This document shows, piece after piece, positions 1 to 59,097 of a stretch of 64,000 bases of DNA (its first letter is position 1; every line of letters begins with the position of its first letter). The stretch covers positions 2,595-66,594 of the IMG/VR virus record IMGVR_UViG_3300036900_000315; one strand, 5' to 3'. The stretch is from a virus. A model generated the notes under the pieces. It searched no databases and was not told where the DNA came from. It saw only the letters and a program-made list of their open reading frames with translations. Both the position numbers and the translations under genes were made by a program.

Positions 1-1336
1 TCACCTCGACATAGATTGGCTCTCCCATGCTGTCCACGTAGTTGTTATCGACAAGCACAGGGCCGCCGTACCCGGAGGTATTGGTGAAACCACCATCTGA
101 GAACTGAATGGGTATTGGGTAGGCGCCGGTTACGTTGTTGGCGTAGGAATTGTCCGCGTAGTTTCCGACGATCGCCCACTGCATGTTGGTCTGCATCGTC
201 CCGTAAATCAACCCCTGGACATTCGGGTATACGACTGCCGGAGACAAGGCGGATCGAGCGGGCGAGTGAAAGTAGATATCACGCACCGAGATGTATCGAG
301 GGAACGGCGCAGGCTGCCCATTACTCCCTAAGCCGAATGAGAGATAAACCCCATAGCTCACGAGATTCGTAGGGTGCAAAGAGAACTCTAGGTTCTCTAT
401 CCAGAAGTGGTGGAACTGCCCGGTCGCAGCAGCTTTGAATATGGTGCCGTTCTGAACAAAGGTTCCAATCGTCGCCGCCAGCTGCTGAAAGCCGCCCAAT
501 TTCAAAGAGGTGGCGTAGCTGGGATTGATGCGCGATCCGAATGGAGGAAAGTCCGATGCTGCCACTTTGTGAGTCCGGAAGATGATCCATCGATGATTGG
601 CTGCTGTGATAAGTCCCCCCGTGGCGTTGGGATCGATGGCCATCACTGGCAGGTTGTATCCGGTGCCGTTTCCAGTGTCAGGCACGATGCAGGTTACCCC
701 TTGTGGAACCTCGAACACGGTGCCGAACCATAATTTGGTTCCTGGCGCGGCCAGGATCGCAGTGAGCGTGTCGCCTATGGAGATCGATCCCGAGTAACCA
801 GACGGCGCGCTTACGCTAGCAGTTGAGATGCATTCTCCGCCGGACCCGGTCGCCGCAAGTGGAACGATTACGTAGGGAATAGAGTACGACGAGCACGTTG
901 AATCGTCCGGCTCGCACAGCAGGTTTGCCTGCACGCTTGCAGGAGGCGCGGGTAGATGGGAGGCCGAGGCCGATGGCGTAGTAGCCGACACCTCAGCGGT
1001 CCCACAGCCTTGCGCTACGGTCATGCACCCGTTGACTTCGTCGTCGTCATTTGGCCGAGATGTTGGCAGGAAATAGTAAGTGGTTCCGTCCGCCAGCCCG
1101 GTAATGGGCATGGAGCAAACGCCGCTGGTGAACAGGCCGCCGCTCCGAGAACTGCTGGAACTCCAGAGGTAGACTCCAGACGAGACGCCGTACTGTACCC
1201 AACACTGAGAATCAGGCGACACCGTCCACTTCACCAACGCTGAATTGGTGCTGGTGGTGACTGAAATCGCACTGATGGTCGGCACCTGCGCCACTGCGGT
1301 TATCGCTAAAATGCCCATTAATATAAGCGTTTTCAT
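1..1336 (-). CDS. Secreted protein with N-terminal FN3-like domain (3' end outside window)
   Basis: Hand-translated; absent from the ORF track because there is no stop in the window. MKTLILMGILAITAVA|QVPTISAISVTTSTNSALVKWTVSPDSQCWVQYG...ITGLADGTTYYF; frame open to base 2; AAGGA upstream. Confidence 0.8.
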   Translation of the reverse strand, partial: MKTLILMGILAITAVAQVPTISAISVTTSTNSALVKWTVSPDSQCWVQYGVSSGVYLWSSSSSRSGGLFTSGVCSMPITGLADGTTYYFLPTSRPNDDDEVNGCMTVAQGCGTAEVSATTPSASASHLPAPPASVQANLLCEPDDSTCSSYSIPYVIVPLAATGSGGECISTASVSAPSGYSGSISIGDTLTAILAAPGTKLWFGTVFEVPQGVTCIVPDTGNGTGYNLPVMAIDPNATGGLITAANHRWIIFRTHKVAASDFPPFGSRINPSYATSLKLGGFQQLAATIGTFVQNGTIFKAAATGQFHHFWIENLEFSLHPTNLVSYGVYLSFGLGSNGQPAPFPRYISVRDIYFHSPARSALSPAVVYPNVQGLIYGTMQTNMQWAIVGNYADNSYANNVTGAYPIPIQFSDGGFTNTSGYGGPVLVDNNYVDSMGEPIYVEV

Positions 1337-1346
1337 TAGATTCCTT

Positions 1347-2078
1347 TTAGTGATATGCAGCTGCCGTGCAAGACCAAACTCCAGAACCAGATAGCGTCAG
1401 TGTCGGAGAATAGGTACCTGGACCGACCAATCTATGAGCAATCGCAACAGCAACTCCACCGGGGCTTGCCTGCGAATCCACTGTTAGACCAGATCCAGAT
1501 CCCGGCGTAACGGTGGCAGGATAGGATTCCAGTGAAACCATGATAATAGAACTAGCGGCCGTTGTGGTCAGTGATCCACACGTCACGGCAGTGCCACTGC
1601 CGTCTGCACTGGAAACTACATCGTGAGCGGGACTTGAAAGGCCGCTGACCTCTATCGCCGCAATGCCGGGGTATGAAAATAAGCCAGAATTCGGCGTTGA
1701 CGTTACCGTAAACGGAGAGCCCGTTGACGTAACCGGAGCGTGCCCGATGCTAGACCACACGTTAGCGTCTGTGGTGGCCGCATGGTTTGTGTCCTGGGTA
1801 TACGTGTTGGAGTGATTATCACTCCCGCCGAAAGATGCGGTGCCGGCCCCAAAATAACCATTCGCCGCGTAGATAATTACGTTCGATGTCGTCGCAGGGG
1901 ACGGGAACGACGCAGATTGCGGCGCAGAGTCACCAGCGCTGTTCTGCCCTGACAGCACCTGACCAGACACCAGCGCAATAGTTGAGCCGCCCGCCGCTGG
2001 CGCGACGTTCGTGCCAATCAGGGGGATTTGCGCGTTGAGCGTCGCGACAAACGCAATCAGGAATAGGAAGTTCTTCAT
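1347..2078 (-). CDS. Secreted Ser/Thr/Gly-rich beta-sandwich protein
   Basis: Start reassigned to MKNFLFLIAFVATLNA|QIP (ATGA overlap with upstream stop); signal peptide; S/T/G/A-rich. Confidence 0.8.
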   Translation of the reverse strand: MKNFLFLIAFVATLNAQIPLIGTNVAPAAGGSTIALVSGQVLSGQNSAGDSAPQSASFPSPATTSNVIIYAANGYFGAGTASFGGSDNHSNTYTQDTNHAATTDANVWSSIGHAPVTSTGSPFTVTSTPNSGLFSYPGIAAIEVSGLSSPAHDVVSSADGSGTAVTCGSLTTTAASSIIMVSLESYPATVTPGSGSGLTVDSQASPGGVAVAIAHRLVGPGTYSPTLTLSGSGVWSCTAAAYH

Positions 2079-3217
2079 CGGTCTACCCGCCAGTTGAGGG
2101 TCACGGCCCCGAGGGTGGGAGACGTGCTCGTCAGTGCGTTGCACTGATCGAAGTTCACGTTATCCGCGGTTGCATAAGCGTTGATCGTAATGCCACCCCC
2201 TGGAGTGTAGCCCGCGAGCGCCTTGATGGAGGCGTTGGCCGATGCGGTAACCGTGTCGGTTGCCTTCACGCCTGGCGCGCTCACCGTTACCACTGTGGCG
2301 CACAATCCGGCGCCGAGCGCGGTAGTGCCCATGGTTGCCGTTCCGGAGAACCCGTTCCCACCGCTGATGATCCTATAACCGCCAGCGCCCGAGTTGAGAG
2401 CGGTAGCGTAGACGGCCCAGAACGGCTGTCCCGACGCGCACTGCGAAGGGTTGGGGTTACTCACTCCGTCAAGCTGGTAAACGTTCCTGGCACCTTGTCC
2501 GTTGCCGATGTCGAGCGAAAGGCCAGCCGCGCAGTTGGCGTTCGACTCAACCAGGACCCGCATACCCTCCCCTAGAGCCGGGGCCGCATTGCCTATTGGC
2601 GCTCCGACGAATGCGGTAGTGGAGGCAGAGGTCAGCGCGATTGTCGTGTCAGCCGCTTGAACGGCGGTCGCTCTGGAGAGCATCACCGCCGTGTTAGCCG
2701 AAAAGGTTGTACCTGTGAGATTGAGCGTGGTGCCATCTGCTGAGTAGGTCGTTCCCGCACCTCCACCGCAGCCACTAGAAGCGCTTCCGTCAGGGTGGAC
2801 GCAATCAGTAGTGGGTGCCCCCGAGGATACAGCAGAGGGAACGCCGCTCGCGTATTTAATGATGCCAGTGAGTGCCGAAGTGGGAAGATTTGCTGACGGA
2901 ATGACGCTGTTTGGCGTGTCGAGAACGCCACCTGTGACGTGGACGTAGCCAGTGCCACTCGGTGCGACTCCGCTACTGCCCACAATCTGCGACCAGTCGT
3001 GGAAGTACCCGCAGACCCAATCGGTCGGCACGGCGGGCGAAGAGGTTGTCAGTTGCCACTTTTGCCCTAGCCCGCAACCGCCGGGAAGATTAGGCCCCTG
3101 CGATGTCGGCCAGGTTGCGAGGTTCATCCGGAAATCGTGCGTCTCCTGTGCCAATAGGCCAGAGGCGCCCACGATCGCGCAGAGCGCGAGTGCCGCGCCC
3201 GTTCGAATACTCTTCAT
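2075..3217 (-). CDS. Secreted tail-fibre-like protein
   Basis: MKSIRTGAALALCAIVGASGLLA|QET signal; fibre-type motifs TTYSADGTTLNLTGTTFS and GMRVLVESNANCAAGLSLDIGNGQGARNV; paired Cys. Confidence 0.75.
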   Translation of the reverse strand: MKSIRTGAALALCAIVGASGLLAQETHDFRMNLATWPTSQGPNLPGGCGLGQKWQLTTSSPAVPTDWVCGYFHDWSQIVGSSGVAPSGTGYVHVTGGVLDTPNSVIPSANLPTSALTGIIKYASGVPSAVSSGAPTTDCVHPDGSASSGCGGGAGTTYSADGTTLNLTGTTFSANTAVMLSRATAVQAADTTIALTSASTTAFVGAPIGNAAPALGEGMRVLVESNANCAAGLSLDIGNGQGARNVYQLDGVSNPNPSQCASGQPFWAVYATALNSGAGGYRIISGGNGFSGTATMGTTALGAGLCATVVTVSAPGVKATDTVTASANASIKALAGYTPGGGITINAYATADNVNFDQCNALTSTSPTLGAVTLNWRVDR

Positions 3218-3243
3218 AAATCTATTTCCTTTTCGGTGTTGCT

Positions 3244-3783
3244 TCAAGCGGCCTTCGCGGCAAGCGAGGAACGCAGTATTTGGATTGCAGACCCGTGCCT
3301 GCGGATGACGGTGCGGCGGGAGGCTTTGACGCCTAACGCGATTTCGGGGAAGGTGGCGCCGCTGAGCTTCATGGCGATTACTTTGCGCTCGGGGGCCGGC
3401 AGGGAGAGAATGGCGACGGCGACGCGGGTTTCACGGCGGTTCGCGTCAATCTCTTCGACGAGAGAGGGGTGCGGGGTCGAGAATTGGTGGAGCTCGTCCA
3501 CCGGGAGACCGTCGATCGGGATGGCCTGGTGAGCCCGAGGCTGGGCCCGTACCGAGTCGAGCATGCCGCCTCGCAAGCGGGTGATCAGGTAATTTTCCAA
3601 GCGGTCGGCGACGCAGAGCAAAACCTCTTCGCCGGTTTGCTTGAGGTCCTGCTCGTCGATCGACCGGGGCAAGGTGGCCTTCAGCCGGCGGACGGTTGCG
3701 GAGATCAGCGGACGGTAAATAGCTGCTACCTGGTCGCGGCGGAACATAGAGACGGTACTCGGGCTACGCAGGGGAGATGGCAT
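3244..3783 (-). CDS. Sigma-70 family (FliA/WhiG-like) RNA polymerase sigma factor
   Basis: Region 2 (YRPLISATVRRLKATLPRSIDEQDLKQTG, RLRGGMLDSVR) and region 4 (LPAPERKVIAMKLSGATFPEIALGVKASRRTVIRRH); GGAGG before MPSPLR. Confidence 0.8.
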   Translation of the reverse strand: MPSPLRSPSTVSMFRRDQVAAIYRPLISATVRRLKATLPRSIDEQDLKQTGEEVLLCVADRLENYLITRLRGGMLDSVRAQPRAHQAIPIDGLPVDELHQFSTPHPSLVEEIDANRRETRVAVAILSLPAPERKVIAMKLSGATFPEIALGVKASRRTVIRRHGSAIQILRSSLAAKAA

Positions 3784-3824
3784 GGGTGCCTCCAGTGTGC
3801 GCCCCCGCACGCCACAATAGGGGT

Positions 3825-20266: not shown

Positions 20267-20503
20267 CTAGTACGGATCGACGCGATCGCTGTTGGTCGTG
20301 CCATTTGCCCAGGCGTAAACCCGATACGTCCGGTGCTCTCTTTCGTCCATCGGATCGGCTGGACTCATGGTGCCGTTGAAGTCGACGGTGAATCCCATAC
20401 ACTCCGCTGGGCAGCCGGCACTGGGACGGTGGATTATTCCATTCGTCGACTCAACCCGCTCGCATCCCGCGAGCCCGATCGCGAGCAGTAGTATCCGGAT
20501 CAT
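20267..20503 (-). CDS. Small lipoprotein
   Basis: MIRILLLAIGLAG|C lipobox. Confidence 0.65.
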   Translation of the reverse strand: MIRILLLAIGLAGCERVESTNGIIHRPSAGCPAECMGFTVDFNGTMSPADPMDEREHRTYRVYAWANGTTNSDRVDPY

Positions 20504-28145: not shown

Positions 28146-28482
28146 CTGCAGGAAACAGAATGTGATGGCGCGCTTCGTCACGCTGTCCGAGAACCACCCA
28201 CACCGCGTGTTTCAGCGCCTTGACCTGGTCGCTATCTCCAGGCTCAGGCCGGATGTCCACTCCAGCAGGAGGCCACGTATCGGCCTTCGGTCCCAGGTTC
28301 AACCGCTCGCAGAGCGAATAAGCCTCAGCGCGGGCGCCAGGCATGCGTTCGAAGAACGAAGCAATCTTGAAGTTGGGCGAGATCTCCGAACCAGGCTCGT
28401 ACACGTTGTACCACTCATCGCCCTCCGGACCGTGAACCGGTTCGTTCACTCGGTAGCGGGCTGTGATCTTCGGATCGTTCAC
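28135..28482 (-). CDS. Hypothetical protein
   Basis: GTGA overlap; GGAGG upstream. Confidence 0.6.
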   Translation of the reverse strand: MNDPKITARYRVNEPVHGPEGDEWYNVYEPGSEISPNFKIASFFERMPGARAEAYSLCERLNLGPKADTWPPAGVDIRPEPGDSDQVKALKHAVWVVLGQRDEARHHILFPAVTT

Positions 28483-28862
28483 GCTATTACCTCCAAAGAT
28501 CGATCGGAACTCGCGGCGATCGCGCTGCGCGTCGGGTTATCCGCGACGATACAGCCCTCTGAGGCCTTGCCTGGGTGAGCGATCGAGTCCGGATGAATAA
28601 AGAAGCCGTCGCGCCCGTGCATCACGTTCTTGGGGTCCGGTGTGAGCCGCATGGCGACCGGTCCGAGGCGAGGTTCCGTGTGCGCCGGGCCGATCGTATA
28701 GAAGCCTCGAGGGAGCGGTCCGACGCAGGACTCAAACTGGCGATCCGGGTTGTTCTTGGCCGAGGCGTCGAAGTGCGGCGGAATGTTGCCGCCCGCGTAG
28801 CCGGTGCCGACGAGCTGCCCGTCGTGGGACATGCGTCCGGTGGATTGCTGATATTGCCACAT
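28479..28862 (-). CDS. Tlde1/DUF2778-like L,D-transpeptidase-fold protein, putative endolysin
   Basis: WQYQQSTG...GYAG...NNP...GPLPRGFYTI...GRDGFFIHPDS...ASEGCI. Confidence 0.85.
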   Translation of the reverse strand: MWQYQQSTGRMSHDGQLVGTGYAGGNIPPHFDASAKNNPDRQFESCVGPLPRGFYTIGPAHTEPRLGPVAMRLTPDPKNVMHGRDGFFIHPDSIAHPGKASEGCIVADNPTRSAIAASSDRSLEVIA

Positions 28863-32041: not shown

Positions 32042-32542
32042 TCAGAAACTCTTGCCGAAACCGAAAAATAATCCCGGCGTTATCTGATTCGGCACAGCGG
32101 GGGTTGCCTGCGTCGCCGCAGTGATGCGAAGTTCACCCACCAGATAGATGCCGGCCAACTTTGGTTTCAAGCCCTTGAGGTCGTAAAGCATAATGGCGCC
32201 GCCCGAGAAGGAGCCGATAGTAGGGGTGGCAGCCGCTACTCCAGCATCGACCCGGCCGCCAAGGGAGAAATTCCCGGATCTCGAGAATAGCTTCATGAAC
32301 CCGGTCCGGATCGTGGACACGTTGGACAGCATGTCGATGGTGGTGATCGAGTAGTTTCCGCCGCCCAGGCCAACCGCCGCGGACACCCAGCCCTCCGCCA
32401 CGTTAGGAGTGCCATTGTTGCGCGTGTATCCCCCGCCTGTTGCGACGAAGTAGCTGGGATAGGGTTCAGGGCTCGGTGCAGGCGTGACTGTCTGGGCCGA
32501 GGCGACGAAAGCGAACAGCAAGAGGGCGAGGGCGTGTTTCAT
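32042..32542 (-). CDS. Small outer-membrane beta-barrel protein
   Basis: Signal MKHALALLLFAFVASA|Q; alternating beta strands; C-terminal FGFGKSF. Confidence 0.75.
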   Translation of the reverse strand: MKHALALLLFAFVASAQTVTPAPSPEPYPSYFVATGGGYTRNNGTPNVAEGWVSAAVGLGGGNYSITTIDMLSNVSTIRTGFMKLFSRSGNFSLGGRVDAGVAAATPTIGSFSGGAIMLYDLKGLKPKLAGIYLVGELRITAATQATPAVPNQITPGLFFGFGKSF

Positions 32543-32551
32543 TGGAGGGAG

Positions 32552-32863
32552 TTACCTTTTGGCGGGTGCCGCCGGCTTCGCTTCTTCCGGCTTTGGTTCC
32601 GGATCGACCACCCAGCGCAGAGTCTGGGGGTCCAGGTGGATCTTCAGGGTGGGGTGGGCCGCCTTGACTGCCTTCTCATACTCGATAATCTGGGTGCCCA
32701 GAAGGTTCGCCTGTGTGGTGAGGAGATCGCGCCTTGCTTGCAGGGTTTCGACCTTCGAGGCTTCTAGTTCCGTCATGCCGTCCTGTTGAGGTGGCGCTGG
32801 TTTGGGAGCTTCGGCTGCGAGGCAGAGGCCCACTGAAACAATTGCAAAAATTATAGCTTTCAT
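32552..32863 (-). CDS. Secreted coiled-coil protein in the fibre-chaperone position
   Basis: MKAIIFAIVSVGLCLA|AE signal; short coiled coil. Confidence 0.7.
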   Translation of the reverse strand: MKAIIFAIVSVGLCLAAEAPKPAPPQQDGMTELEASKVETLQARRDLLTTQANLLGTQIIEYEKAVKAAHPTLKIHLDPQTLRWVVDPEPKPEEAKPAAPAKR

Positions 32864-32897
32864 AAATGTTTTCTTTGGTTGCGTTTTTTTTAACGAC

Positions 32898-35800
32898 CTA
32901 GCAGCCGGACGATCCGTAGAAGATTCCAGCCGCGAAGTCCATCGTGCAGGTGCCAGTATTGGCGAAGTTTCGCACGCCAAGGGTGCCGGTGAATCCAGCG
33001 TGGCCACCAGCAGAGATACCCGAAGACCCCATGATGATTCCAGAATTGAAAGTCACGGCCTGCTGGAACGTCGAGAACGACGCCGAGGTGAAGTTGATGT
33101 TGCCGGATGCGTCGATCTGGATGCGGTCAGTATTACTGGTGCGGATGCCGAGCGATATGGCGTTAAACGATCCAAAGAAAGCACCGCCGCCGCTGCCGCC
33201 TGTCATCCCCATGTAGGCTTTGTTGCCAAAGTCATTCTTGACGACGAAATAGACGTTTCCGCCAATGACACCGGTTTGCCCTAGCAATTCAAGTTTGTTT
33301 CCTGCGTCGATGTCAGTGTTTTGGTTACCGGCAAATACGACCCCACCGAAGGCGCCGCCGCCGTTTGGCACGTTGAGCGAATTCTGAAGGGTACCGCTTA
33401 CAGTGCTATACAGTGAAGCAATACCTCCGCCTGTCACGTCCAGCGCATTAAAGGAATTGGTTGATGTGATTGCTCCGGTTAAAGTCGTAAAGCCGCCGCT
33501 AGGCAGGTTTAGAGCGGTTCCTGATGAACTGGCCGAATGAAATCCGTCACCCGATTGAACCCATCCTGCGGTCGCTGTGATGCTGGCCTGTGACGCGGTG
33601 CCGTCGATCAGAATATTTCCAATCGGCGTGAACCTTATGAACTTGGCGTTGCCAGAGCTGCACGATGGTGGGTTGGGGCACTGATTCGTGATGATGTTGA
33701 ACTGCCCGTTCACATCGTTCCACATGCGGGTGATCATCGGCGTAGAAGGGAGTCCGCTGACGATCGGCCCAGAAACAATATCAATGAACTGTGAGTTTGT
33801 GGCATAGGCCGCGCCCGTGCAAGACCCCAGTACCGTGGTGCAGGCCGAGCCCGAGTAGCCCACGTTTCCATGGCCGATATGCAAACCGACGATAGCAGCA
33901 CCATCATTGGTGATGTACCCGTAATCCCAATAGTTCGCCGCACTACCAGTGAGGTTGATGTTCACGGCCTGGGTGGTGAGATTGGTATGGGTGATACCCA
34001 GGTACGCGACGCCCATATTGAGGCTAGACACACTAGATCCGGTGTTGCCCACCTGCTGATCGAATTCCGCGCCGACAACCGAGCCTGCATGGTTGTGCGA
34101 ATAGTCAAACACGCTCGTAGCCAAGGACCGATCAACGTCCGAGACAAAAATATTAACGCCCCAGGCCTGCGCGTTGGTTGCATTCACGAGGCCGTAGAAC
34201 GCGCCCCCGTTGCATCCCACGTGGTGGCCGCCGCCGAAGCCGAAGGTAAAGGCTGCGTTACTGACGCACATGCCAGTGACACCGTTGCTCTCCCAGTTAG
34301 CATCCGAGGAAGATGAAACCGCGCCGCCGACGATACCCGACTCGCGCCGCAATGTTTCGTAGGCGTAGGGGTGGAAGTATTCTAAGACCGCCGTCTGGCT
34401 GGTGGCGCCTGCGCCCAATAGGCCAATGACGGGAGAGTAGTCGTGAACGTCATCGAACGCGCCCGCGCTGTTGGCCTCCAGGGGGATGCTGCCGGTAAAG
34501 GATGTCGACCCGAGTAGTAGGGGAGCCGTCGCTGCGGGGCACAGCGAAGACCGAATGAAGCCGCTACCGTCCAAGCACAGAAGAGAACCCGATCCGCTGA
34601 GTGCGCCGAGCCCTGTGGCATTGACTGTGCCGCCGATCCCCATTGGTGCGGCGAAGCTAACCGTGCTCGCTGCGTTGCTTTGTACGAAGTTGCTGACGTT
34701 GCCCATGTTGATGCAGGGCAGCAGCGTTGTGCAGCCAGTCCCGCTCGTGGTGGTCGCTACGAACTGATTTGCGCCGGTGACGCTGGAACCTCCCCAGAAG
34801 CCGATGCCGGTGTGGTTATTGGATGCATCGATGGCCTTAAGCGGGCTGGAGCCGTTGACGCCGATGAAAACCGTATTGAAGAACGTGTTTCGCAGGTTGT
34901 CCACTGCTAGCCCGGCTGTTGAGTTTGCTACGGCCCCGGTGCCGATGGATAAGGAATTCACCCGGCTATTGCGGGCCGAATCCAAGGTCAACGTGCTGGT
35001 ACCCGTGTCGGTGATGCTGTTCAGATAGGAGTTACGTACGTTGTCAATCGCAAGATTACCGGTGATGTTCAGCGAATGGAACCAAGAGTCCTGCGTTTCA
35101 TCGATCAGCGGCGTTGCGCCCCAGTAGAGGCCGCCAGTCGTCGTGCCGTTGCCCAAATACGTGCGCCCATTCGAGGAGAGGCTCAGGATCAGGTTGCTCG
35201 TCGTGGTGGGGGTTGCGCCAGAGTAAAAACGCGACAAAACGATGCCGGTTCCCAACTCGATCTGATTGCGAAATGTCGCCACCGCCGTGCTGCCGTGCTG
35301 CGAAATTCCCAGGTTGTAGCCGGCGGAGGTCACGCCCGAGGTCGTGGTGGAGTTTCCGCCGTACTCGACCGAACTGCTATTGATGTCCTTTGAGAACTGC
35401 GCCAGGGGCCCGGTCAGGTCGTTGTCGAAAACCCGGTTGACGTCCGCGGTGACGAATGCGCCGTATTGCGCGTCCTCGATCGCTGCGTTTATTCCGCCGC
35501 TGCCTGAATACGTGATCTTGTTTTTGGTGACTGTGACGGCGTTGGCCTGCTGGTTGCTTCCGGTGCCTATCGTCCCTAGCGTGATCGGCGCGCAGAAATT
35601 ATGATCGGAAGTTCCGTTGCTATTGCCGGGGATCGTGAGGGTGTTTCCCGAGACCAGAGAATTGCGGGCGCCATACATTTTGATGCTACAGCCGAGGCCA
35701 TAGAACGAGTTATCTGTGATGCTGAGATTGTTTTCGGCCTGCGTGTTTCCGTTGCTGTTGCCCGCGTTGTAGCCGTAGTTCCAATTCTGCCCGGCACTCG

Positions 35801-37178
35801 TGATTCCGCTTGGACTATAAACCGCGGGTCCCATCTGGCCAGCCACCGTTCCGTCATAATCGACGTCGCCGATCAGCGGATTTGTGCAGTCATTGCCTGC
35901 AATCTTTGCGCCGCCCAGTCCGTCGCCGTCGATGCAGCCGCCATTCACAAACTTGACGGTATTGTTGGCGATGGTCCCTCGCACTACCAAACTGGCGTGA
36001 TCGAACGCAACAGCCGGAACGTTGCCCGAGGCATTGTTGTACCACTTCGCAGTTCCGACCAAGTCGCTATCCGAGGTCGAAACGAACCCGACGTGATCAC
36101 CGGTATTGTTGGCAACTTGGAATCCGGTAACGCCGGAGAGTTCGATGAAGTCCAGGCCAATCGTCTTGAAAATATTGCCGCTGATTTTGATGTTGGAATT
36201 GAGCAGGCTATTGCCGTTCCTCGCGTCCATAAAGAAGGCGTGCCCGGTGTTTTGCTTGAACGTGCTATCGATCAGCTTGAGACTATGGACGCCAAACGTG
36301 CTCGCCGAAACGATAAAGACGCCGCCCTGCCACGATCCATAAGTTTCGTCGCCCGGGCTGCCGAATAGGAAGGAGCGGTTGTATTGAAAGGTGAGGTTCG
36401 ACAGAAAAACGTTATCGATGCTGACTGTGCGCGCATCGAGGATCAGCGGATAACCCGCGCTGTGCTGGACAGTCGAGTTCTTGAAAGTGAGCGATCCGCC
36501 ATGAACCCAGATGCTGGAATTGTCCGTGAAGATCGAGGACGTCGACGTGTATGTGGGGATGCCGCCGATGAGGTTCGCTCGATCCATACCAGCAGGTGTC
36601 GTGGTCTGGCCGTCGAAAGAGCAGCCGTCGATTGCGACGCCTGTCCCATCCGGGATATCGAACCAACCGAAGCCTGAAGTAATGGAGCCCGTGCGCTTGA
36701 ATAGCGTCGTCCCTGCATCGCAGAGGACGTATACGTTTGCCGGAATCGTTACCGTGCCCGAGACGCTATAGAACCCCGTTGCGCCCGTGGATGGCACGCG
36801 AATCGCAGCGCCGGCCGCCGCGGCGAACGCCGTATTGAGGCACGAGGTCGAGTCAGTGGCGCCGGTGGGGTCGCATCCTGCAGTGAGCAGGACGGTAGGC
36901 ATGGCGATGCCGGTGACAGGCGTTACGTTGAGGTTATAGGCGCCGTCCGTTACGACGAAGCCGCCGCCGCTTGTATCCGCTGCGGGTAAGCGAAAGGTAT
37001 GGTCTGCCGTCGTGACGTCCGGAGAGGCGAGGCCCACGTGGTGAGTGTTGGCCTTGTTCTGGAATTGGACTTCGCCCACGGCCGACCCGTTGGCCGCGGG
37101 AATCACCTTGAGTTTATTGGTGTCTTGCTGTGCGAGGCAAGCTGAAGCCACGCAAAGGAAAAGCAGAAGTTTGTGCAT
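32898..37178 (-). CDS. Tail fibre/tailspike with right-handed beta-helix and an N-terminal signal peptide
   Basis: Start MHKLLLFLCVASACLA|QQ (TAATG overlap, GGAGGAG); FRLPAADTSGGGFVVTDG; GCDPTGATDSTSCLNTAF pectate-lyase-type start; Asn-rich beta-helix repeats. Confidence 0.85.
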   Translation of the reverse strand: MHKLLLFLCVASACLAQQDTNKLKVIPAANGSAVGEVQFQNKANTHHVGLASPDVTTADHTFRLPAADTSGGGFVVTDGAYNLNVTPVTGIAMPTVLLTAGCDPTGATDSTSCLNTAFAAAAGAAIRVPSTGATGFYSVSGTVTIPANVYVLCDAGTTLFKRTGSITSGFGWFDIPDGTGVAIDGCSFDGQTTTPAGMDRANLIGGIPTYTSTSSIFTDNSSIWVHGGSLTFKNSTVQHSAGYPLILDARTVSIDNVFLSNLTFQYNRSFLFGSPGDETYGSWQGGVFIVSASTFGVHSLKLIDSTFKQNTGHAFFMDARNGNSLLNSNIKISGNIFKTIGLDFIELSGVTGFQVANNTGDHVGFVSTSDSDLVGTAKWYNNASGNVPAVAFDHASLVVRGTIANNTVKFVNGGCIDGDGLGGAKIAGNDCTNPLIGDVDYDGTVAGQMGPAVYSPSGITSAGQNWNYGYNAGNSNGNTQAENNLSITDNSFYGLGCSIKMYGARNSLVSGNTLTIPGNSNGTSDHNFCAPITLGTIGTGSNQQANAVTVTKNKITYSGSGGINAAIEDAQYGAFVTADVNRVFDNDLTGPLAQFSKDINSSSVEYGGNSTTTSGVTSAGYNLGISQHGSTAVATFRNQIELGTGIVLSRFYSGATPTTTSNLILSLSSNGRTYLGNGTTTGGLYWGATPLIDETQDSWFHSLNITGNLAIDNVRNSYLNSITDTGTSTLTLDSARNSRVNSLSIGTGAVANSTAGLAVDNLRNTFFNTVFIGVNGSSPLKAIDASNNHTGIGFWGGSSVTGANQFVATTTSGTGCTTLLPCINMGNVSNFVQSNAASTVSFAAPMGIGGTVNATGLGALSGSGSLLCLDGSGFIRSSLCPAATAPLLLGSTSFTGSIPLEANSAGAFDDVHDYSPVIGLLGAGATSQTAVLEYFHPYAYETLRRESGIVGGAVSSSSDANWESNGVTGMCVSNAAFTFGFGGGHHVGCNGGAFYGLVNATNAQAWGVNIFVSDVDRSLATSVFDYSHNHAGSVVGAEFDQQVGNTGSSVSSLNMGVAYLGITHTNLTTQAVNINLTGSAANYWDYGYITNDGAAIVGLHIGHGNVGYSGSACTTVLGSCTGAAYATNSQFIDIVSGPIVSGLPSTPMITRMWNDVNGQFNIITNQCPNPPSCSSGNAKFIRFTPIGNILIDGTASQASITATAGWVQSGDGFHSASSSGTALNLPSGGFTTLTGAITSTNSFNALDVTGGGIASLYSTVSGTLQNSLNVPNGGGAFGGVVFAGNQNTDIDAGNKLELLGQTGVIGGNVYFVVKNDFGNKAYMGMTGGSGGGAFFGSFNAISLGIRTSNTDRIQIDASGNINFTSASFSTFQQAVTFNSGIIMGSSGISAGGHAGFTGTLGVRNFANTGTCTMDFAAGIFYGSSGC

Positions 37179-40100
37179 TAGGAAAGTGCTCCTCCGGTAC
37201 GGAATGAATCGAGGCCCCACACGGTGCCGTGCCAGGTGAGGATATAAGTGGTCCGGGTACTGAGATCTCCCGCAATACCCTGCAGCGGAACGTCAGAGGC
37301 GAAGCCGCCCGCGCCGGCCGCGAAGTTGGGGACAGGCCAGCCGCCCGTTGCATCCTGGTCGATGTAGAGAGTGAAGCTCATGCCGGCAGAGATCGTGCCT
37401 CCGGTGAATATTGGGGCTACGATTGTCGCGATGGTGGCTGCAGGGACTCCGGTCGCCGTCGTGGTGTCGAGGACGATCCGGAAGTTTAGCCCGTTGGCTA
37501 AATCGATATTGAAGTTGTTCGAGCCGTCCAGCGGGACCGTTGAGTAGCCGCCGCCGGCAGTGTTTGGCCCCGCCTGCCCGAAAACATACAGCTCACGGAA
37601 TGGCGCGTAAAGATCAGGGAACGACGCATTATTCACGTCTTCCGTCTGCACTTCGATCAAGAACGACTGCCCGCCCTGGTTGTCTAAAGGCAAACTGCCG
37701 ATTGAGTTACCGGGGATAATTCCGCTGGTTGCGGTGTTGAGCTTCTTACCCGTCACGTCGTACGGATAGTGCGAGTCGATGATGATGAAGACGCTGGTGG
37801 CATCGGGGATTGTGCCCCATACCCCGTTGATCGTTAGGGTGGTGTTGGTGTTCGAGAGAATCGTCCGCTCTTGCCCTGCGCCTGCGCCCGCGATAATCAG
37901 CACGTTGTCGCCACCGAATGCATCCACAGCGAGCCCTGATGGGTTCAGCGAGTTCACATACAACGCATCGCCGATTGTGTTCGCGCTGAAGATATTGGCC
38001 TGAGCCCGGATCGTCACGAAGTCGCCGACAGAGAAGGCGATCCCGTTTGTTGAGATGCTTAGCGCCGACTGATTCATGTGGAGGTTCGGCGTTGCTGAGG
38101 ACGTGATACCGAAGCTCGAAGCGTCGAATGGGCCGGTGGCGACTCCACCCGGAATGGCTCCCAGTTTCGAAACGACCCTACCTGCAAAGTTGTCGGTGAA
38201 CGCCGGGATTCCGAGCCGCACATAGGGACCGCCGGGAACGATGACGGTTGCGGTAACCAGCGCGCCTTCCCAGATGCCAGCCTTGAAGATCTTCCTACCG
38301 TAGAAATGGAAGTGGTCGAAGTTGATATCCGGAGGGCCGCCGATTGTGGGCGAGAACAATGCCGTCAGATTGATAGCGCCGCCGACGAGTGCCCCGACCA
38401 GCGCGTTAGCCTGCCATGTTTGCGTGGGGTCCTGCAGGCCGCCGTAGACGTTAAATGAAACTGTGGCTGCGTCATACGAGGGAATCGGAATGGAGACCAC
38501 GGCGGTTGTGGTGCCAGGCGCAATATAAGCCTTGCAGTCTGAAGAGACGCCTGATTCGTCGCCGTTCGAATCGACTGCCGTGACCGTGAAGTGATAGGTC
38601 CCCGAGGGGATGTTGCCCCCACTCGACGCCACGACTGCCTGCCGGCCAACCTGGGGAGGATGAACGAGATTCGACGTCACATTGACGACTGCCGCGCCGC
38701 CGATATCCGCTACAACTTGCGCGGACCCGTCCGTGTTGGTCGTATATTCGGTGACGATGCTGAACGTCGGAGTGCCCGGAAATAGCGCGTCGGTGAAGGG
38801 CCGGGCGAGGTCGACGTTATGCCAGGGGAGTGAAGGCCGGTTGGGCGGGTTTTTGCGCGGGTCCGAGTACTGAGGTGGGACAGATTGCCCGAAGGCGTCC
38901 GCATACCATGAAGATTCCGTCCACTCGACCGTGGTGGTCATCTGCTCGAAATTGGTGGTGCCTTCGATCTTGATGACGCGGCCGAGGAATCCTAAGCCGG
39001 CGAGATGCGTATCGACCGAGGTGTAGCTATTCGGTGGCTGCGAGAAGCGGCAAAGCACGATCTGGCCGACTCGTAAATGCGAGATCCGGAATGTCGTCTT
39101 GATCTCGAAGCGCCGTGTGCCTCGGGTGTCCTGCTGCTCGTTGCCGCGGAGCTGCTCGGCAAGATAGGTGCGCGAAACGCGAAACGCCTGATCGAACGAG
39201 GTGATGCCAGTCGCCACAAAGTTCGAATTGACGATGGAGCCCGAGTTGGCCCACTGCCCGCGCGCCGCGTCGTCGACGTCGGTGACGGAACTCCAGTCCT
39301 GCACGAAGCCGTTATCAGCATCTAAAATCGGGATGATGATCTTGTTCCCAGAGGCCGCGTTGGGCGACATAACCGTGCGGATTGAGACCGTGTTCGATTC
39401 GTCGAAGGCGTACGCTGGATACCCCGTTCCCGTGCCACCCGCGGCGATGATGGCCGTAATCCCGGTGTTGTAATTGCTGCCGTCGATGGGCGCCGGCTGC
39501 TGGTCCGCAATACTCTGGCGGATCATAATGCCGACCAGGCCGGTCACCTTGTCTCGATAGACCTGCGCATTGAAGCCGCGCAGCATCGAGTTCAGAAGCT
39601 CGCTGCCTAATTTCGCGTCGCCAATATAGGTGCCGATGATGTAGCGCGCGTGACTGTTCGTGTTGCCGTTGTTGTCGATATAGGAAACGGCCGTGGCGCA
39701 GATCGCCGCCGCGGTAATGAAGCTTTGGATGTTCAAATCTGCCCACCTGAGTCCAGCGCGCAGCAGGAGATCCGCCACGCAAAATGCCGGGTTATCCGAA
39801 TAGCTGTACGGCCACGAATTGACGTCCGCCGGGTTCGTCGTATTTGGCTGCTTCACCCACAAACGCTGGGCGAGGACGTTCACGCTGGGGACTGCGTTCG
39901 AAGCCGCCAGCTCCACAAACAGGACAGCGTAAGCCATGGCAATGCCGCCGTAGGGGTCGCCCTGCGAGTTGTAGCCTGCGTCCGCTGTCGGCGCGCCGCT
40001 CCGGAGGCCCTGCGTCACCAGGTCCCAGCGGAGGCCGTTGTTTGTTGGGTCGCTTGATCCCGTGTTGTGCGGGACGGTCACGCCGTTCATGACCACCTGC

Positions 40101-41448: not shown

Positions 41449-41774
41449 ACCGCCGCGCCTTCATTACCGCGATCGGCGCGGCACTTGGGCTGCACGGGAA
41501 GGTTAAACCGAATACCGCGGTGCTCTGCGAAACCATTAGCTTTGCGGGAATTCCGTACGCCCAAAGAGGAAGAGTTCAACCCCGGATAACATTCGAATTC
41601 TCAAGCTCCCGTCGCCTCTTTTGCGGGGACCTGATCCATCTGGAGATGAAGACTTGCAGGATCGATCAAGTGGTGTGGACTTCAATGTCAGGCGAAATTC
41701 TTGGGCCTTATCGTTATTTCGCCACCCAAATACAGAGCGAGGAGCTTACGGAACCTGCGCCAGCTTCACAGTGA
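41442..41774 (+). CDS. Hypothetical protein with twin-arginine-like N-terminus
   Basis: MLNRRAFITAIGAALG; AGGAG upstream. Confidence 0.5.
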   Translation: MLNRRAFITAIGAALGLHGKVKPNTAVLCETISFAGIPYAQRGRVQPRITFEFSSSRRLFCGDLIHLEMKTCRIDQVVWTSMSGEILGPYRYFATQIQSEELTEPAPASQ

Positions 41775-42513
41775 AGCTTGAAGCGTTCTTCTGTTCGTAC
41801 GTGATATCGAGCGACGCCTGATCGAATCTGCACTTCGAAATAACGTCCGGTCCGGCGGGATCCGCAAATGCGAACGTTGACCAGGCGCCGCCTGCTGCGA
41901 GGAACCAGTTGATGTACGTCGCGAGATCAGCATCCGAAACGCTGACGTAGCTCAGCGTCAGGCCGTTCAGAGGTCCACCAGGATACGGGTTGCCAGCTCC
42001 ATCGGTTAGCCCGAAGCCGTAGTACCCCGACGCGTAGCGCGGTCCATTGGGATTCTTGCCGCACAGCGTCTTTTCCTGGGGGCTATTTTCGTGCGGGTAG
42101 CAGCACACCGCCCCGCTTGTCATCAGTGGATAACTGCCGGTGAGCGCCGGAATCGTCGGTGCGTTCTGCGTCTGCGAGCACTTCAGATCGAGCGAATATC
42201 GGCGGTCGTTTCTGATGGTCCACGTGTCCGAGTCGAGCCCGAGGTTCGAGTACGTCACGCCGTCCAGAGTCATCGACCACGTGCTGTTGAACATACCCTG
42301 TGCCGTGGTCGAGAGGAACGTATTTAGCGCGCTTGCATCAGTCGAGTTGAGCCGGGCATAGTGGAGGTTGAAGGAGTTCAACGGAGCATGTCGCTTCCAC
42401 CGCTGTTCGGCGCCGGACATGAATTTGACTATGGCGACGTCCAGGTTGAGGGAGCGATTTAGTGGGTAGAGCGCCGGAGCGCCGCCGCGGACTGTGGGTA
42501 GAGTGCCTGGCAT
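41746..42513 (-). CDS. Distal tail (Dit)-like protein
   Basis: Follows the tape measure gene; two similar halves (SGAEQRW...LNTFL; LATYINWF...FAFADP...CRFDQ). Confidence 0.75.
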   Translation of the reverse strand: MPGTLPTVRGGAPALYPLNRSLNLDVAIVKFMSGAEQRWKRHAPLNSFNLHYARLNSTDASALNTFLSTTAQGMFNSTWSMTLDGVTYSNLGLDSDTWTIRNDRRYSLDLKCSQTQNAPTIPALTGSYPLMTSGAVCCYPHENSPQEKTLCGKNPNGPRYASGYYGFGLTDGAGNPYPGGPLNGLTLSYVSVSDADLATYINWFLAAGGAWSTFAFADPAGPDVISKCRFDQASLDITYEQKNASSFTVKLAQVP

Positions 42514-53532: not shown

Positions 53533-54435
53533 TTAGCTGTTTACCTGGACGGCAAACTGGTTGCGGAGCACGCCGACGCCGTAGAGCACGTCAACCGTGA
53601 AGCGCTGCGACAGGGTGGCCGCGTCGTAGCTGAGCGTTACGCGCACGCCGAAGTTGCCGATTTCGGCATACTCGACGATGGCGCCGGTGCCAGCCAGGGG
53701 CGCATCGAGCTTGCGCATCACGAGGCCGATCGCATCCTTGGCGAACGCCAGGTTATGCGTGTTGTTGCCGGTCTTGGCGACGAGCTGCGAGCGGAGAACG
53801 AAGAAATCCTTGATCTTGCCGATTTCGCCGGCGATGATCGCGTCGATACCCTGCTGGCCGGTGTTGGTCCAGCTCTGGAATTTCGGAATCTGACGCATCG
53901 AGGCGTAGGTTAGCGGGTCGACGATCAACATCTTCGGCAGGCGAGTGGGGATCTTCGCCACAAAGAGAGCGGTTTCCGCACTGTCGATCACGGCTTCGGT
54001 GATGGTGGTGTTCGCCGCGCCAACCGGGGTGTTGGCCGTAAAGTTGCCGTACAGTGCCAGGATGTCAGACTCAATCTGCTCGCCGAGTGCGTTGATCGCG
54101 GGCTGCATGTAGGTCTTGACCAAGTCGGGGGTTGCGAGGGCCTTGGTGACATCCGGAATGCGGAACGTGCACTCTTTGTGCTTGTTGAGCACGAGCTGCG
54201 CGTTGCCGAGATTCGGATTCTGCTCGGCTACCGTTCCACCTTCACCGAGGTCGTTTGCAACCAGGGTCGGGGGGATTGCGACGTTGACGGTGTCGCCTGC
54301 GTTGGCGAGGAGGGGCTCGTACTGGCGATTGACCAGGTTGCCCATCACGAGGTTGGCGACGAGAGCTTCAAGTGCCTCGACGGCGACCAATTTGACGATC
54401 GCCTGAGCGACGTTTACTGAGGTAATAGCGGCCAT
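53533..54435 (-). CDS. Major capsid protein (P22 coat-like)
   Basis: LVMGNLVNRQYE...GDTVNV...YMQPAINAL...NLAFAKDAIGLVMR...VDVLYGVGVLR. Confidence 0.92.
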   Translation of the reverse strand: MAAITSVNVAQAIVKLVAVEALEALVANLVMGNLVNRQYEPLLANAGDTVNVAIPPTLVANDLGEGGTVAEQNPNLGNAQLVLNKHKECTFRIPDVTKALATPDLVKTYMQPAINALGEQIESDILALYGNFTANTPVGAANTTITEAVIDSAETALFVAKIPTRLPKMLIVDPLTYASMRQIPKFQSWTNTGQQGIDAIIAGEIGKIKDFFVLRSQLVAKTGNNTHNLAFAKDAIGLVMRKLDAPLAGTGAIVEYAEIGNFGVRVTLSYDAATLSQRFTVDVLYGVGVLRNQFAVQVNS

Positions 54436-57119: not shown

Positions 57120-58496
57120 TCACAAAATCACGGTGGTGCGCGGGCCGCTCTTGCCGCGTGTTTCAGCGACTACGAGGTAGCCAAGAGCGTCTGAGGAGTG
57201 TCCTCGTTTCGGATCGGCGCGCGGAATTTCGTCGTCGAGGGTGTTGCCGGCGTTGTCGCGAGGCCAGGCAAGCTGCTCAAAGTCGGTAATCAACTCTTTG
57301 CACTTCGGGTCGACGAACAGAATGCTCGTGCCCGCCGCGGAAAGGAGTGCGCCGTTCACCATATTGGTGCGCGCTTTAACCGGTCCGTTCGATTCCGGAA
57401 CGCGAGAGCTTACACTCAACCGCTGTTCTTTTACTCGAAGCGTTTCCTTGATCACCGCCCAGTCGCTGCGGTTACTCTGACGCTGTCGGGAGTTCCCGGT
57501 GGCGTCGCCGTACAGATAGACTTGCCGCAGGCCGAGCGCGATATAGGGCTCCATGCGTTTCAGGAACGCGTCGGCATGCTGGGACGTGGTGCAGTCCTTG
57601 ATCACGATCTCGTCTAAGATCCGGATCTCGATCTGCTTCTTTCCGCGCAGCATGTCTTCTCGCGTCGTCACATCGACGACTTGCGAAATAACGCTGCTAG
57701 CGGGGTCGATGTTGAAGTCGAGACTCCAATAGATCGGCCAGGCCGGATCGAATTTAAGAGAGCGGCAACACGTACGCTTGCGGTCGAAGGCGAAGTAAAT
57801 CTGCCCAGTGAACTGCGCGAGGTATTTGCCGAGGACCTCCTGCTCGTAGAAGCGGACGTCGTACGAGTCCTTGAGCCCTTCGTAGTATTCGGCGGTGACA
57901 GCCGGGTTTTCACCCGGCTTCGCGAACACCGCTTCATGGCCCGACTTCTTGTCTGGGCCAACGAACCGAGACCAAACCCAATCAAATCCTTTCGGCGTCC
58001 AAACACCGAAGCCGCAAAGCCTCTTAGCGTTCGGGTGGCGGAGACGGGCTATCATACGTAGCCACGCGTCCTCCTTGCTATAGGTCAGTTCATCGATTCC
58101 AAACCACGCGAGGTTTGTACCCATGAGCCGGAGCGGATTGTCCAAACTCCGGAAGCGCACTGTAGATTCAGGCTCGAGAAGTTCGACCTGGTTATCCGCA
58201 GCGCGAAAGGCAAACGGCACGCCGTTCGACTCCAAGATTTCGAGAAACTCTTTCCGGGTGTTGTCGTGCAACATGCGGAAAGTGGGCGCCGCCAGGACAC
58301 CCGGTAGGCCGGGATTCTGGTACGCCAATTTCAAAACTTCCTGACAGAGCGCTGCGCTCTTGCCAGTTCCCACCGGGCCGCTGAAGCCTTTGAACTTCGC
58401 GGTGAGCGCGTGAAACTCTAATTGCGTTTCAGTCGGGTACTTGCGTCCGAACTGCGAATACTGGACCTCACGCAGGCACTCCAGGGGCGGGAACAT
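57120..58496 (-). CDS. terL: Terminase large subunit
   Basis: Walker A GPVGTGKS, Walker B WFGIDE, TPKG, LDFN, YGDATG, HSSDALGY. Confidence 0.95.
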   Translation of the reverse strand: MFPPLECLREVQYSQFGRKYPTETQLEFHALTAKFKGFSGPVGTGKSAALCQEVLKLAYQNPGLPGVLAAPTFRMLHDNTRKEFLEILESNGVPFAFRAADNQVELLEPESTVRFRSLDNPLRLMGTNLAWFGIDELTYSKEDAWLRMIARLRHPNAKRLCGFGVWTPKGFDWVWSRFVGPDKKSGHEAVFAKPGENPAVTAEYYEGLKDSYDVRFYEQEVLGKYLAQFTGQIYFAFDRKRTCCRSLKFDPAWPIYWSLDFNIDPASSVISQVVDVTTREDMLRGKKQIEIRILDEIVIKDCTTSQHADAFLKRMEPYIALGLRQVYLYGDATGNSRQRQSNRSDWAVIKETLRVKEQRLSVSSRVPESNGPVKARTNMVNGALLSAAGTSILFVDPKCKELITDFEQLAWPRDNAGNTLDDEIPRADPKRGHSSDALGYLVVAETRGKSGPRTTVIL

Positions 58497-59097
58497 CTTC
58501 AATAGCGGGTCTGTAAACGATTCCGGTCGGCTTCTGAGCGGTCGACGAGGCGGCTTCTTTGCGTTTCTTCTCGGTCCGCACACCGTTGATTGCTTCAGCC
58601 GCAGTCTCGTTGCGGACCTGGATGGTGCGGGAGTAACCCGCCATCTTCAGCGCTTTGACGCTTGTTTTTGTGCGCGTCTTGGTGATGCTGCCGGTGTTGA
58701 TGTCCTCCACCGTTTCGTCCTTGACGACGATCACGTCGGCGACTGGCGACATTTCCGCCTTATCGATCAGCTCGTCCATCCGCTTTGCGCGGCGCTCGAG
58801 CGACTCCTGGTTCGACAGCTCAAACTCCCAGCGGCGTTCCTCGAGCTCGAGAACCTTGCGCGCGCGGAGCTTCAGCTTTTCAGCGTCGAGAAACGCGTCA
58901 TAGGCAAGGGCACGCTGCTCCCAGCGAAACTTGCCAGACCAAAGGCCCCACTGACCAGGGCAAATACCCTTCGTCGTGCCGCGGTATTCCGCGTACGCCT
59001 TGGCTAGTGAACGCGAAGCGCCGAGATCTCGGTAGAGGGCGAAGGCGCGGAATGCAGGGGCTGACTCGTATGCGAGTTGTTCGTAGTCAAGGGGCAC
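58468..59097 (-). CDS. terS: Terminase small subunit
   Basis: ESAPAFRAFALYRDLGASRSL...WSGKFRWEQRALAYD; directly upstream of terL. Confidence 0.8.
   Translation of the reverse strand: MPLDYEQLAYESAPAFRAFALYRDLGASRSLAKAYAEYRGTTKGICPGQWGLWSGKFRWEQRALAYDAFLDAEKLKLRARKVLELEERRWEFELSNQESLERRAKRMDELIDKAEMSPVADVIVVKDETVEDINTGSITKTRTKTSVKALKMAGYSRTIQVRNETAAEAINGVRTEKKRKEAASSTAQKPTGIVYRPAIEDVPAPGVPA

Follow-up and report, generated by a model that had tools for sequence, protein, structure and literature searches.

The 64,000-nucleotide stretch examined here (the window; bases 2595-66594 of the 66,594-base IMG/VR record IMGVR_UViG_3300036900_000315, listed as linear with 84% completeness) has a siphovirus-type late operon on its minus strand and comes from an uncultured soil phage, very probably of Acidobacteria. 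Directly behind the tail-tip gene it encodes a 1426-residue putative tail fibre that begins with a predicted Sec signal peptide and contains many closely paired cysteines. By textbook accounts, tailed phages are assembled entirely within the cytoplasm. Judged from its sequence and its relatives, export of this protein is highly probable. Export together with oxidative folding is likely, because the signal is conserved in the relatives and co-varies with cysteine pairing. More tentatively, and with somewhat less than even confidence, we propose that the fibre is exported, acquires disulfides as it folds in the periplasm and attaches to the tail tip once lysis has opened the inner membrane. The initial annotation had suggested an exported fibre system that also includes a small downstream partner and an outer-membrane beta-barrel. 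Export with oxidative folding and the partner are retained here, and the barrel is removed from the system.

The fibre gene, its signal peptide and its cysteines

The fibre open reading frame (ORF) is coupled to the tail-tip gene. Its ATG at 37178 overlaps the TAA stop of the tip gene by one base (TAATG), and a Shine-Dalgarno-like GGAGGAG, read directly from the sequence, is found 10 nt before the ATG, within the end of the tip gene. The encoded N-terminus, MHKLLLFLCVASACLA followed by QQ, opens with a basic n-region, continues with a hydrophobic core of 13 residues and has small residues at both -3 and -1. It thus fits the pattern for Sec and signal peptidase I (n-region, uncharged core of 7-15 residues, small residues at -3 and -1) as MHK, LLLFLCVASACLA and C-L-A before Q. 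Signals were called by our own von Heijne-style rule together with inspection. When the rule was applied to the 98 non-overlapping ORFs of the window, the fibre scored 5.56, the barrel 5.82 and two further minus-strand genes at the left end 5.4-6.0. No start signal is found by the rule in any head or tail gene among these ORFs (tip, Dit-like, tape measure, coat, portal-size and terminase genes). A lipoprotein signal (signal peptidase II) was considered for both the fibre and its partner and dropped because the cysteine is not conserved. In the fibre the lipobox [LVI][ASTVI][GAS]C is also unmatched, as ASAC has Ala at -3, and the cysteine is absent in homologues such as P0003, L065 and L078.

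The mature fibre contains 20 cysteines, which form 10 nearest-neighbour pairs with a spacing of 6-33 residues (102/113, 153/186, 415/431, 497/529, 816/822, 868/880, 971/989, 1113/1120, 1167/1173 and 1411/1426). Each cysteine lies at most 35 residues from another, while the random expectation is 0.62 (p about 0.001, 2000 placements). The initial annotation had drawn attention to the coupling to the tip with a strong ribosome-binding site, to the Sec-type signal, and to the many close cysteine pairs; the coupling and the signal are as described, and all six cysteine motifs that it quoted are found. Its statement that the next gene and the barrel bear signals while the tip and Dit do not is likewise borne out.

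A start-site or annotation artefact, with the real start elsewhere and no signal, is very improbable. An in-frame GTG is present 14 codons upstream at 37220 and a GTG codon is present at residue 25. However, the GGAGGAG and the overlap of the ATG with the tip stop, together with the homologues, rule out the upstream start, which would in any case merely lengthen the n-region. The first Met of the signal also overlaps the tip stop in four viral loci behind homologous tips (L065, L069, L078 and L087), by ATGA or by one base, and the signal is present in all 18 proteins that share the N-terminal domain of the fibre, as described below.

Conservation of the signal and its link to cysteine pairing

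A HMMER search with fibre residues 1-700 against 1.84 billion representatives gave 194 hits, and the best 150 were scored. The six closest proteins are 35-41% identical to the fibre. Five of them begin with a divergent, signal-shaped sequence ending in A/G-Q, and the sixth begins at an internal Met. By our heuristic, signal-shaped N-termini are found in 8 of the top 10 and in 23-24 of the best 150 of the 194 representatives. In most of the other representatives among the 150, a conserved leaderless motif forms the start, about 20 residues ahead of the beta-helix. The signal is observed in 18 of 18 proteins with the N-terminal domain named type A (N-domain A): the window fibre, six database homologues and the fibres of 11 loci. 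Equivalent N-termini occur in P0003, P0005-7, P0049-51, P0053-55, P0057 and P0195 and in the locus fibres L065, L069-73, L077, L078, L082 and L087. These N-termini drift in sequence yet keep the signal pattern. Predicted cleavage exposes a Gln in the fibre, in 22 of 22 aligned rows of the barrel family and in 5 of 7 partners.

Cysteines cluster significantly in 19 of the 24 signal-bearing homologues compared, against 3 of the 24 leaderless ones. Both sets were picked by hand. The signal-bearing set comprises 21 of the 23 flagged proteins plus P0005-7, omitting P0125 (short) and P0152 (whose N-terminus resembles a membrane helix); the leaderless set comprises P0008 and 23 high-scoring long proteins, 24 of 127 in all. 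Pairing was used as the discriminator because density alone is weak, with about 11 cysteines per 1000 residues in leaderless homologues.

These observations bear on a conventional explanation, in which an ordinary virion fibre is assembled in the cytoplasm, the hydrophobic N-terminus does not export the virion pool and disulfides form after release. In variants of this explanation, coupled translation might allow the tip to capture the N-terminus, the N-terminus might tether tail assembly to the membrane, or a different protease might cut it off. The structural-gene position, the coupling and the leaderless relatives in the same slot agree with it. So do two reports, as far as their accessible text extends: disulfides formed without export in a siphovirus tail tube (PMC13576161), and signal-like N-termini of capsid proteins read as prohead-protease propeptides (Matrishin et al., PMC10367356). 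But the fibre N-termini, though variable, retain the n/h/c pattern and the +1 Gln seen in genuinely exported proteins like the barrel family, paired cysteines go together with the signal, the companion protein is predicted to be exported as well, and an uncleaved hydrophobic end would burden a soluble trimer. We consider cytoplasmic assembly improbable.

Co-switching of the fibre with an extra tail-tip domain

The tail-tip protein of the window ends with an extra C-terminal domain (about residues 1168-1299), which is a candidate docking site for the fibre. A scan of IMG/VR with the tip alignment gave 574 contigs. The best 80 of the 574 were retrieved, and all locus counts refer to that subset. 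The tip was also found in 72 of 401 Acidobacteria-class genomes, of which 20 were taken with flanks. By tblastn, the last ~130 tip residues are found only in L065, L069-73, L077, L078, L082 and L086/87, which are 11 viral loci with 8 distinct tip sequences. In these 11 loci the Met of a large ORF overlaps or abuts the tip stop, and a signal and then N-domain A follow. Among 144 sources, a hidden Markov model (HMM) of N-domain A matches exactly these 11 loci and gives one weak hit in L096. The extra tip domain and a signal-bearing N-domain A fibre thus occur together in 11 of 11 loci, and elsewhere in none save that weak hit. Tips that precede leaderless fibres (L051, L079, L091) end about 15 residues past the common RE(I/L)Y.(F/W/Y)G motif, and the fibres in the same slot belong to the same beta-helix family.

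A FastTree phylogeny of tip residues 1-1100 (101 rows) places the module of tip domain and signal-bearing fibre at five separate positions, and well-supported branches force five changes. None of 500 label shuffles gave as few as five changes. In all 5 of the independent pairs, a change of tip domain goes with a change of fibre type. Ten rows whose contigs stop within or at the tip gene were left aside as unassessable (L093, L100, L102, L111, L117, L118, L120, L121, L133 and L135); the count is five changes whether they are set aside or counted as lacking the module.

What follows N-domain A is exchangeable. A beta-helix is found distal to it in the window fibre, P0003 and P0049-51, and other bodies are found in L065/P0195, L069 and L087; P0195 aligns to fibre residues 5-92 only, with 57% identity. 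A conserved N-terminal domain with exchangeable distal parts, as these alignments indicate, is the usual build of virion-anchored fibres. Based on the gene position, the stop-start overlap and the co-switching with the extra tip domain, we infer that the exported fibre would join the virion at lysis.

One observation on the tip domain itself may be added. In L065 the C-terminal part of the tip (L065:13463-14452) has an insertion of ~140 residues within the extra C-domain, which by eye resembles a carbohydrate-binding module.

Fold of the fibre protein

N-domain A is recognised by the motif ..N.LK.IP...GSA.GE..F..K.. followed by ..LP..D..GG.C..TDG... Its nearest ESM Atlas clusters are viral (0.83-0.86), and one carries Mtd_N; Pfam does not confirm these matches, which serve merely as leads. 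The AlphaFold2 model of residues 17-640 has a mean predicted local distance difference test score (pLDDT) of 83.5. The right-handed parallel beta-helix is predicted with confidence, mostly above 90 for residues 96-640. Foldseek against the PDB gave 101 matches at E<=0.001, with tailspikes and polysaccharide enzymes on top, although the TM-scores are low (0.2-0.4). The matches include the tailspikes Det7 gp208, CBA120 TSP3, HK620, phi29 gp12 and that of cyanophage Pam1, the secreted polysaccharide enzymes AlgE4 and RbmB lyase, and the adhesin PfbA. The modelled body has the general tailspike or depolymerase fold, from which an enzyme activity is not claimable. Curated beta-helix families (Pect-lyase_RHGA_epim, Beta_helix) are not matched by the fibre (0 Pfam, 0 PHROG), and a PDB sequence search with it gave nothing at E up to 1. 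Among the homologues, the one in L002 does have a family match, to PF12708 at 4.8e-10. The distal part shares its whole length only with P0003 and P0051 and has a conserved C-terminal GG(I/V)..G..GC end.

The predicted exported partner and the outer-membrane barrel

The gene that follows the fibre encodes a protein of 103 residues, predicted to be a small exported coiled-coil protein and a conserved companion of signal-bearing fibres. Its HMM matches, among the 144 sources, only beside such fibres, in eight sources: the phage of the window, L002, L005, L065, L077, L078, L082 and L096. The adjoining fibre has N-domain A in the phage of the window, L065, L077, L078 and L082, and another N-domain in L002, L005 and L096. 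No partner is found after the signal-bearing proteins of L046, L066 and L108, and the contigs of L069-73 and L086/87 end before the partner position. The suggestion in the initial annotation that the downstream gene belongs with the fibre is therefore sustained. A cysteine pair is present in 5 of 7 family members, and the nearest ESM Atlas clusters are viral hypotheticals (0.90).

Two known classes were compared with the partner. Tail-fibre assembly chaperones are not known to carry a signal peptide; the partner carries one and has no Pfam or PHROG family, and it does not fit the Tfa, gp38 or gp57 type. Spanin features, namely a hydrophobic N-terminus and a helical middle, are present, and by eye there is neither a lipobox partner nor a C-terminal transmembrane domain. 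In L065 the partner directly precedes a transmembrane protein and a lysozyme-like gene.

The barrel of 166 residues is modelled with 8 strands (pLDDT 84.6), and Foldseek relates it to OmpA-TM, Ail, OmpX, NspA and PagL. Its 40 homologues (53-90% identity) lie on contigs of up to 220 kb. A homologue is present in 4 of 301 Acidobacteria-class genomes, and the two inspected lie among ordinary host genes. It is found in no other phage locus of 143 examined, and no Pfam family matches it at E up to 10 (Ail_Lom and OMP_b-brl included). The barrel had been suggested as part of the fibre system. This does not hold: with 8 strands it is too small for passage of a fibre, its family is of host type and it is absent from the other phage loci among the 143 examined. 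A role as export channel or assembly factor was rejected on the same grounds, including the lack of co-occurrence with fibres. By its sequence relatives it is a host-type accessory (moron) cargo gene outside the fibre module. Lom of phage lambda, a small eight-stranded outer-membrane barrel, is likewise cargo near the tail-fibre genes, lying after gene J, and we liken the barrel to it in this respect. It differs from Lom, Ail and OmpX in belonging to its own Acidobacteria family, with no Pfam match.

Proposed mechanism and alternative roles

The proposed sequence of events is as follows. The 1426-residue protein would be the distal tail fibre or tailspike, and a single late message would encode both it and the tip. 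If the Sec signal is functional, with the same habit of exposing Gln after cleavage as in the host-type barrel family, the fibre is exported and cleaved after Ala16. It would then fold in the oxidising periplasm with about ten local disulfides, and the exported companion may act as a folding or holding factor. Meanwhile the tails would be built in the cytoplasm without the fibre. At lysis the holin would open the inner membrane, and the waiting periplasmic fibre trimer would dock through N-domain residues 17-95 on the extra ~130-residue C-terminal domain unique to such tips. On the free virion the beta-helix might then act as a receptor module that binds or cuts polysaccharide. As a statement about a whole clade of Acidobacteria siphophages, whose fibres would be Sec-exported, Gln-ended, disulfide-bonded with the help of the small protein and snapped onto the tip domain after holin action, this proposal is made with slightly more reserve.

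Several points weigh against docking of an exported fibre, or against export itself. The signal calls rest on our own heuristic and not on a trained predictor. The gap in cysteine density is modest (median 16.7 per 1000 in signal-bearing and 10.7 in leaderless homologues), and the tail-tube disulfides cited above indicate that virion disulfides can form without export. The sign test on the five pairs gives p 0.0625, which is the lowest value possible with five. Linkage alone could yield the co-switching, since the DNA for the tip domain lies next to that for the fibre N-domain. N-domain A as a monomer models poorly, with a pLDDT of about 45 by AlphaFold2. Alternatively, the phage may bind its receptor through the extra tip domain, with the exported protein outside the particle. 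At least three further signal-bearing proteins are encoded outside the tail module, which fits a general secreted repertoire. We know of no tailed phage that exports a virion part, and our literature search, which covered articles but not their supplements, found no paper on signal peptides of tailed-phage tail fibres. The predicted complex of tip residues 1150-1299 (three copies) with fibre residues 17-100 (three copies) counts neither for nor against binding (score 0.26, mark 0.32).

In a second export-based explanation, the protein never enters the virion. It would act late in infection as a depolymerase or adhesin, either kept in the periplasm or released, with the extra tip domain serving as the actual receptor binder. 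Such a protein might cut or mask host capsule, exopolysaccharide or O-antigen, so that progeny are not trapped or superinfection is blocked, or it might be displayed on the cell surface. The signal and the cysteine pairing indicate the periplasm in this case too, and the beta-helix resembles AlgE4 and RbmB lyase as well as tailspikes. Bacterial precedents are the accessible accounts of WceF with its twin-arginine (Tat) signal (PMC7949094) and of the Bdellovibrio MAT (mosaic adhesive trimer) fibres (PMC10769870), and signals are given for about 5% of soil-prophage carbohydrate-active enzymes in the part available of PMC13507307. A second block of three signal-bearing proteins lies behind a sigma-like gene. 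Tips without the extra domain pair with leaderless fibres, as would be expected if tip domain and fibre were alternative receptor binders. On the other hand, the overlap with the tip stop is kept across the five places in the tree, exchange of the distal parts leaves the N-domain conserved, which is the pattern of anchored fibres, and about 800 residues of fibre-like shaft follow the enzyme-like domain. Late co-expression is ill-timed for superinfection exclusion, and an enzyme held in the periplasm cannot reach a surface polymer before lysis. We regard an exclusively non-virion role as only slightly less probable than the docking proposal.

Comparison with known systems and significance

The closest relatives by descent are the leaderless fibres with the same helix (L051, L079, L091 and P0008). 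Their helix is homologous (33-37% identity), lies in the same slot behind a homologous tip and belongs to a family with a fold like the tailspikes of Det7, CBA120 and HK620. They differ from the window fibre in starting about 20 residues before the helix with neither signal nor N-domain A, in their unpaired cysteines, in their tips without the extra ~130-residue domain, and in that no partner gene is found alongside. P0008 ends in a Peptidase_S74 chaperone domain (PF13884).

By architecture the MAT fibres of Bdellovibrio bacteriovorus are closest. As far as the available text describes them (Caulton et al. 2024, PMC10769870), they have a signal, a conserved beta-rich N-domain and variable distal modules, and the window fibre likewise has a signal and a conserved N-domain. 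There are also differences: the N-domain has about 80 residues in the window fibre and about 130 in MATs, and many MATs have an S74 domain while the window fibre has none. MATs are products of predator chromosomal genes shown on the predator's own surface, whereas the window fibre is coupled to a phage tip gene. By logic the closest systems are WceF and exported endolysins. WceF of Pantoea stewartii, in the portion available of PMC7949094, is a Tat-exported trimeric glycanase with a tailspike-type right-handed beta-helix that acts on exopolysaccharide. It is encoded in a bacterial biosynthesis cluster, uses Tat and not Sec, and is described there with neither a fibre shaft nor a tail-gene neighbour. 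Endolysins such as Lys44 of fOg44 and the P1 Lyz type (Sec-exported, signal-anchor-release) are late phage proteins that use host Sec before lysis (PMC6116005, in its accessible part). They are lysis enzymes and, in that account, neither virion proteins nor fibre-like. Signal-bearing genes in phages of Porphyromonas gingivalis follow the Bacteroidetes 'Q rule', which the accessible text of Matrishin et al. 2023 (PMC10367356) reads as adaptation to host secretion. The exposed Gln is shared with the window fibre, the barrel family and five of seven partners. The signal-bearing genes given there are capsid, spanin and unknown ones, and that text does not describe them as tail fibres. None of the architectural or logical analogues (MAT fibres, WceF, endolysins) is a tail-module fibre of a tailed phage. 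New here, as far as the predictions go, are the link between cysteine pairing and signal within one family, the co-switching tip domain and the dedicated exported partner.

If the docking proposal is correct, it would bring in an additional assembly step and make the phage depend on the host in new ways (Sec, signal peptidase, Dsb enzymes, holin timing). Tailed virions would then have a two-compartment assembly line, the paired cysteines of soil-phage receptor binders would have a testable reason, and it would be clear how soil phages come by disulfide-hardened receptor binders. Metagenomic fibres for host-range or depolymerase work would need removal of the signal or expression in an oxidising compartment. 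If the protein is never in the particle, it would be a conserved late exported tailspike-like protein with a dedicated exported companion, part of a phage secretome hidden in structural modules and automatically annotated as 'tail fibre'.

Genomic context and other signal-bearing proteins

The positions of the features are given in Table 1.

Table 1. Features of the late operon and of the fibre protein (window coordinates)
Feature	Position	Strand	Remarks
Outer-membrane beta-barrel, eight-stranded, 166 aa	32042..32542	-	predicted start MKHALALLLFAFVASA, then QT; ends GFGKSF, C-terminal Phe
Partner, 103 aa	32552..32863	-	predicted start MKAIIFAIVSVGLCLA, then AE; signal, Pro/Ala-rich stretch, predicted helix, Pro/Lys-rich tail
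Fibre ORF, 1426 aa	32898-37178	-	start ATG at 37178
Distal fibre part, residues 641-1426 and stop	32898..35258	-	six of ten cysteine pairs
Right-handed parallel beta-helix, residues about 96-640	35259..36893	-	predicted; like tailspikes and polysaccharide enzymes
N-terminal domain type A, residues 17-95	36894..37130	-	common to fibres with differing distal parts
Predicted Sec/signal peptidase I signal peptide, fibre residues 1-16	37131..37178	-	MHKLLLFLCVASACLA; Gln at +1
Tail-tip gene, 1299 aa	37178-41077	-	homologues carry PF13550
Extra C-terminal tip domain, about residues 1168-1299	37181..37576	-	candidate docking site for the fibre
Shine-Dalgarno-like GGAGGAG	37189..37195	-	10 nt before the fibre ATG, within the tip gene end
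Dit-like gene	41746-42513	-	weak DUF2460 match, sub-threshold
Tape measure, 1192 aa	42516-46094	-	PHROG tape-measure families
P22-type coat	53533-54435	-	
Terminase-like gene	57120-58583	-	

The host of the phage is very probably an acidobacterium, because the many tip homologues, which carry PF13550, are labelled as phage tail proteins of Bryobacteraceae and other Acidobacteriota. Pfam and PHROGs give no family for the fibre, partner, barrel or tip of the window itself. When fibre and tip were compared by tblastn with 50,697 phage records, there were 0 matches and no cultured relative, so there is no virion proteome to consult. Queries of IMG/VR with single proteins (fibre, barrel, tip) found no relatives, and queries with alignments did retrieve them.

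The second exported block lies outside the tail module at window positions 2-3810 on the minus strand and continues to record base 838 (L145:838-6404). A sigma-like gene of 188 residues is followed by three signal-bearing proteins: one of about 380 residues (MKSIRTGAALALCAIVGASGLLA, then QE), one of about 243 residues (MKNFLFLIAFVATLNA, then QI) and one of 1030 residues (MKTLILMGILAITAVA, then QV) with an FN3-like start (Pur_ac_phosph_N 8e-06, below cut-off). At the record end (record bases 2-775; L145:2-739, minus strand) a stretch of ~40 residues, ..GALKQFWHLFPRTPDYVVVKQFANSPLVHPPAAAAPPQKG, occurs twice in one frame, which could reflect either a direct repeat or overlapping assembly where the contig ends. 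A 78-residue ORF at window positions 20267-20503 (minus strand) has a lipoprotein-type start, MIRILLLAIGLAGC, with the lipobox LAGC. At the end of the presumed lysis region, a 127-residue protein (28479-28862, minus strand) matches phrog_24118, of unknown function, end to end at 2.9e-33. Past the lysis genes of L065 (L065:20612-24172) two more signal-bearing proteins are found, one with collagen repeats and CBM_5_12.

Two further families were met among the tip-containing loci. Many of L097-L144, and L047-L064, carry a uniform element (e.g. L099:9998-16622). In it, a tip homologue of about 1300 residues ending in DLTVTIRL is followed by a leaderless protein of 900-960 residues starting ..ETLEKLRPDRDLQCYF.. 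and then by host genes, often an aminopeptidase-like one (..LDGWLFFDHH..). Each of the 72 tip-positive Acidobacteria-class genomes has one tip copy, and many of the IMG/VR contigs are about 16.5 kb long and end just past the 900-960-residue gene. The element looks like a vertically kept, gene transfer agent-like or domesticated tail or particle cluster. A recurring signal-bearing family with the mature start ..G(T)TRV.DT....G.R..G.. (L045:11541-12407, L080:17581-18125, L088:18262-18891, L089:15073-16680, L092:17476-18273 and L094:6224-7027) occurs in phages of other tip types, where it adjoins the 3' side of leaderless proteins of ~1000 residues with the motif KL.P.RT..LRGFDRRGAA.

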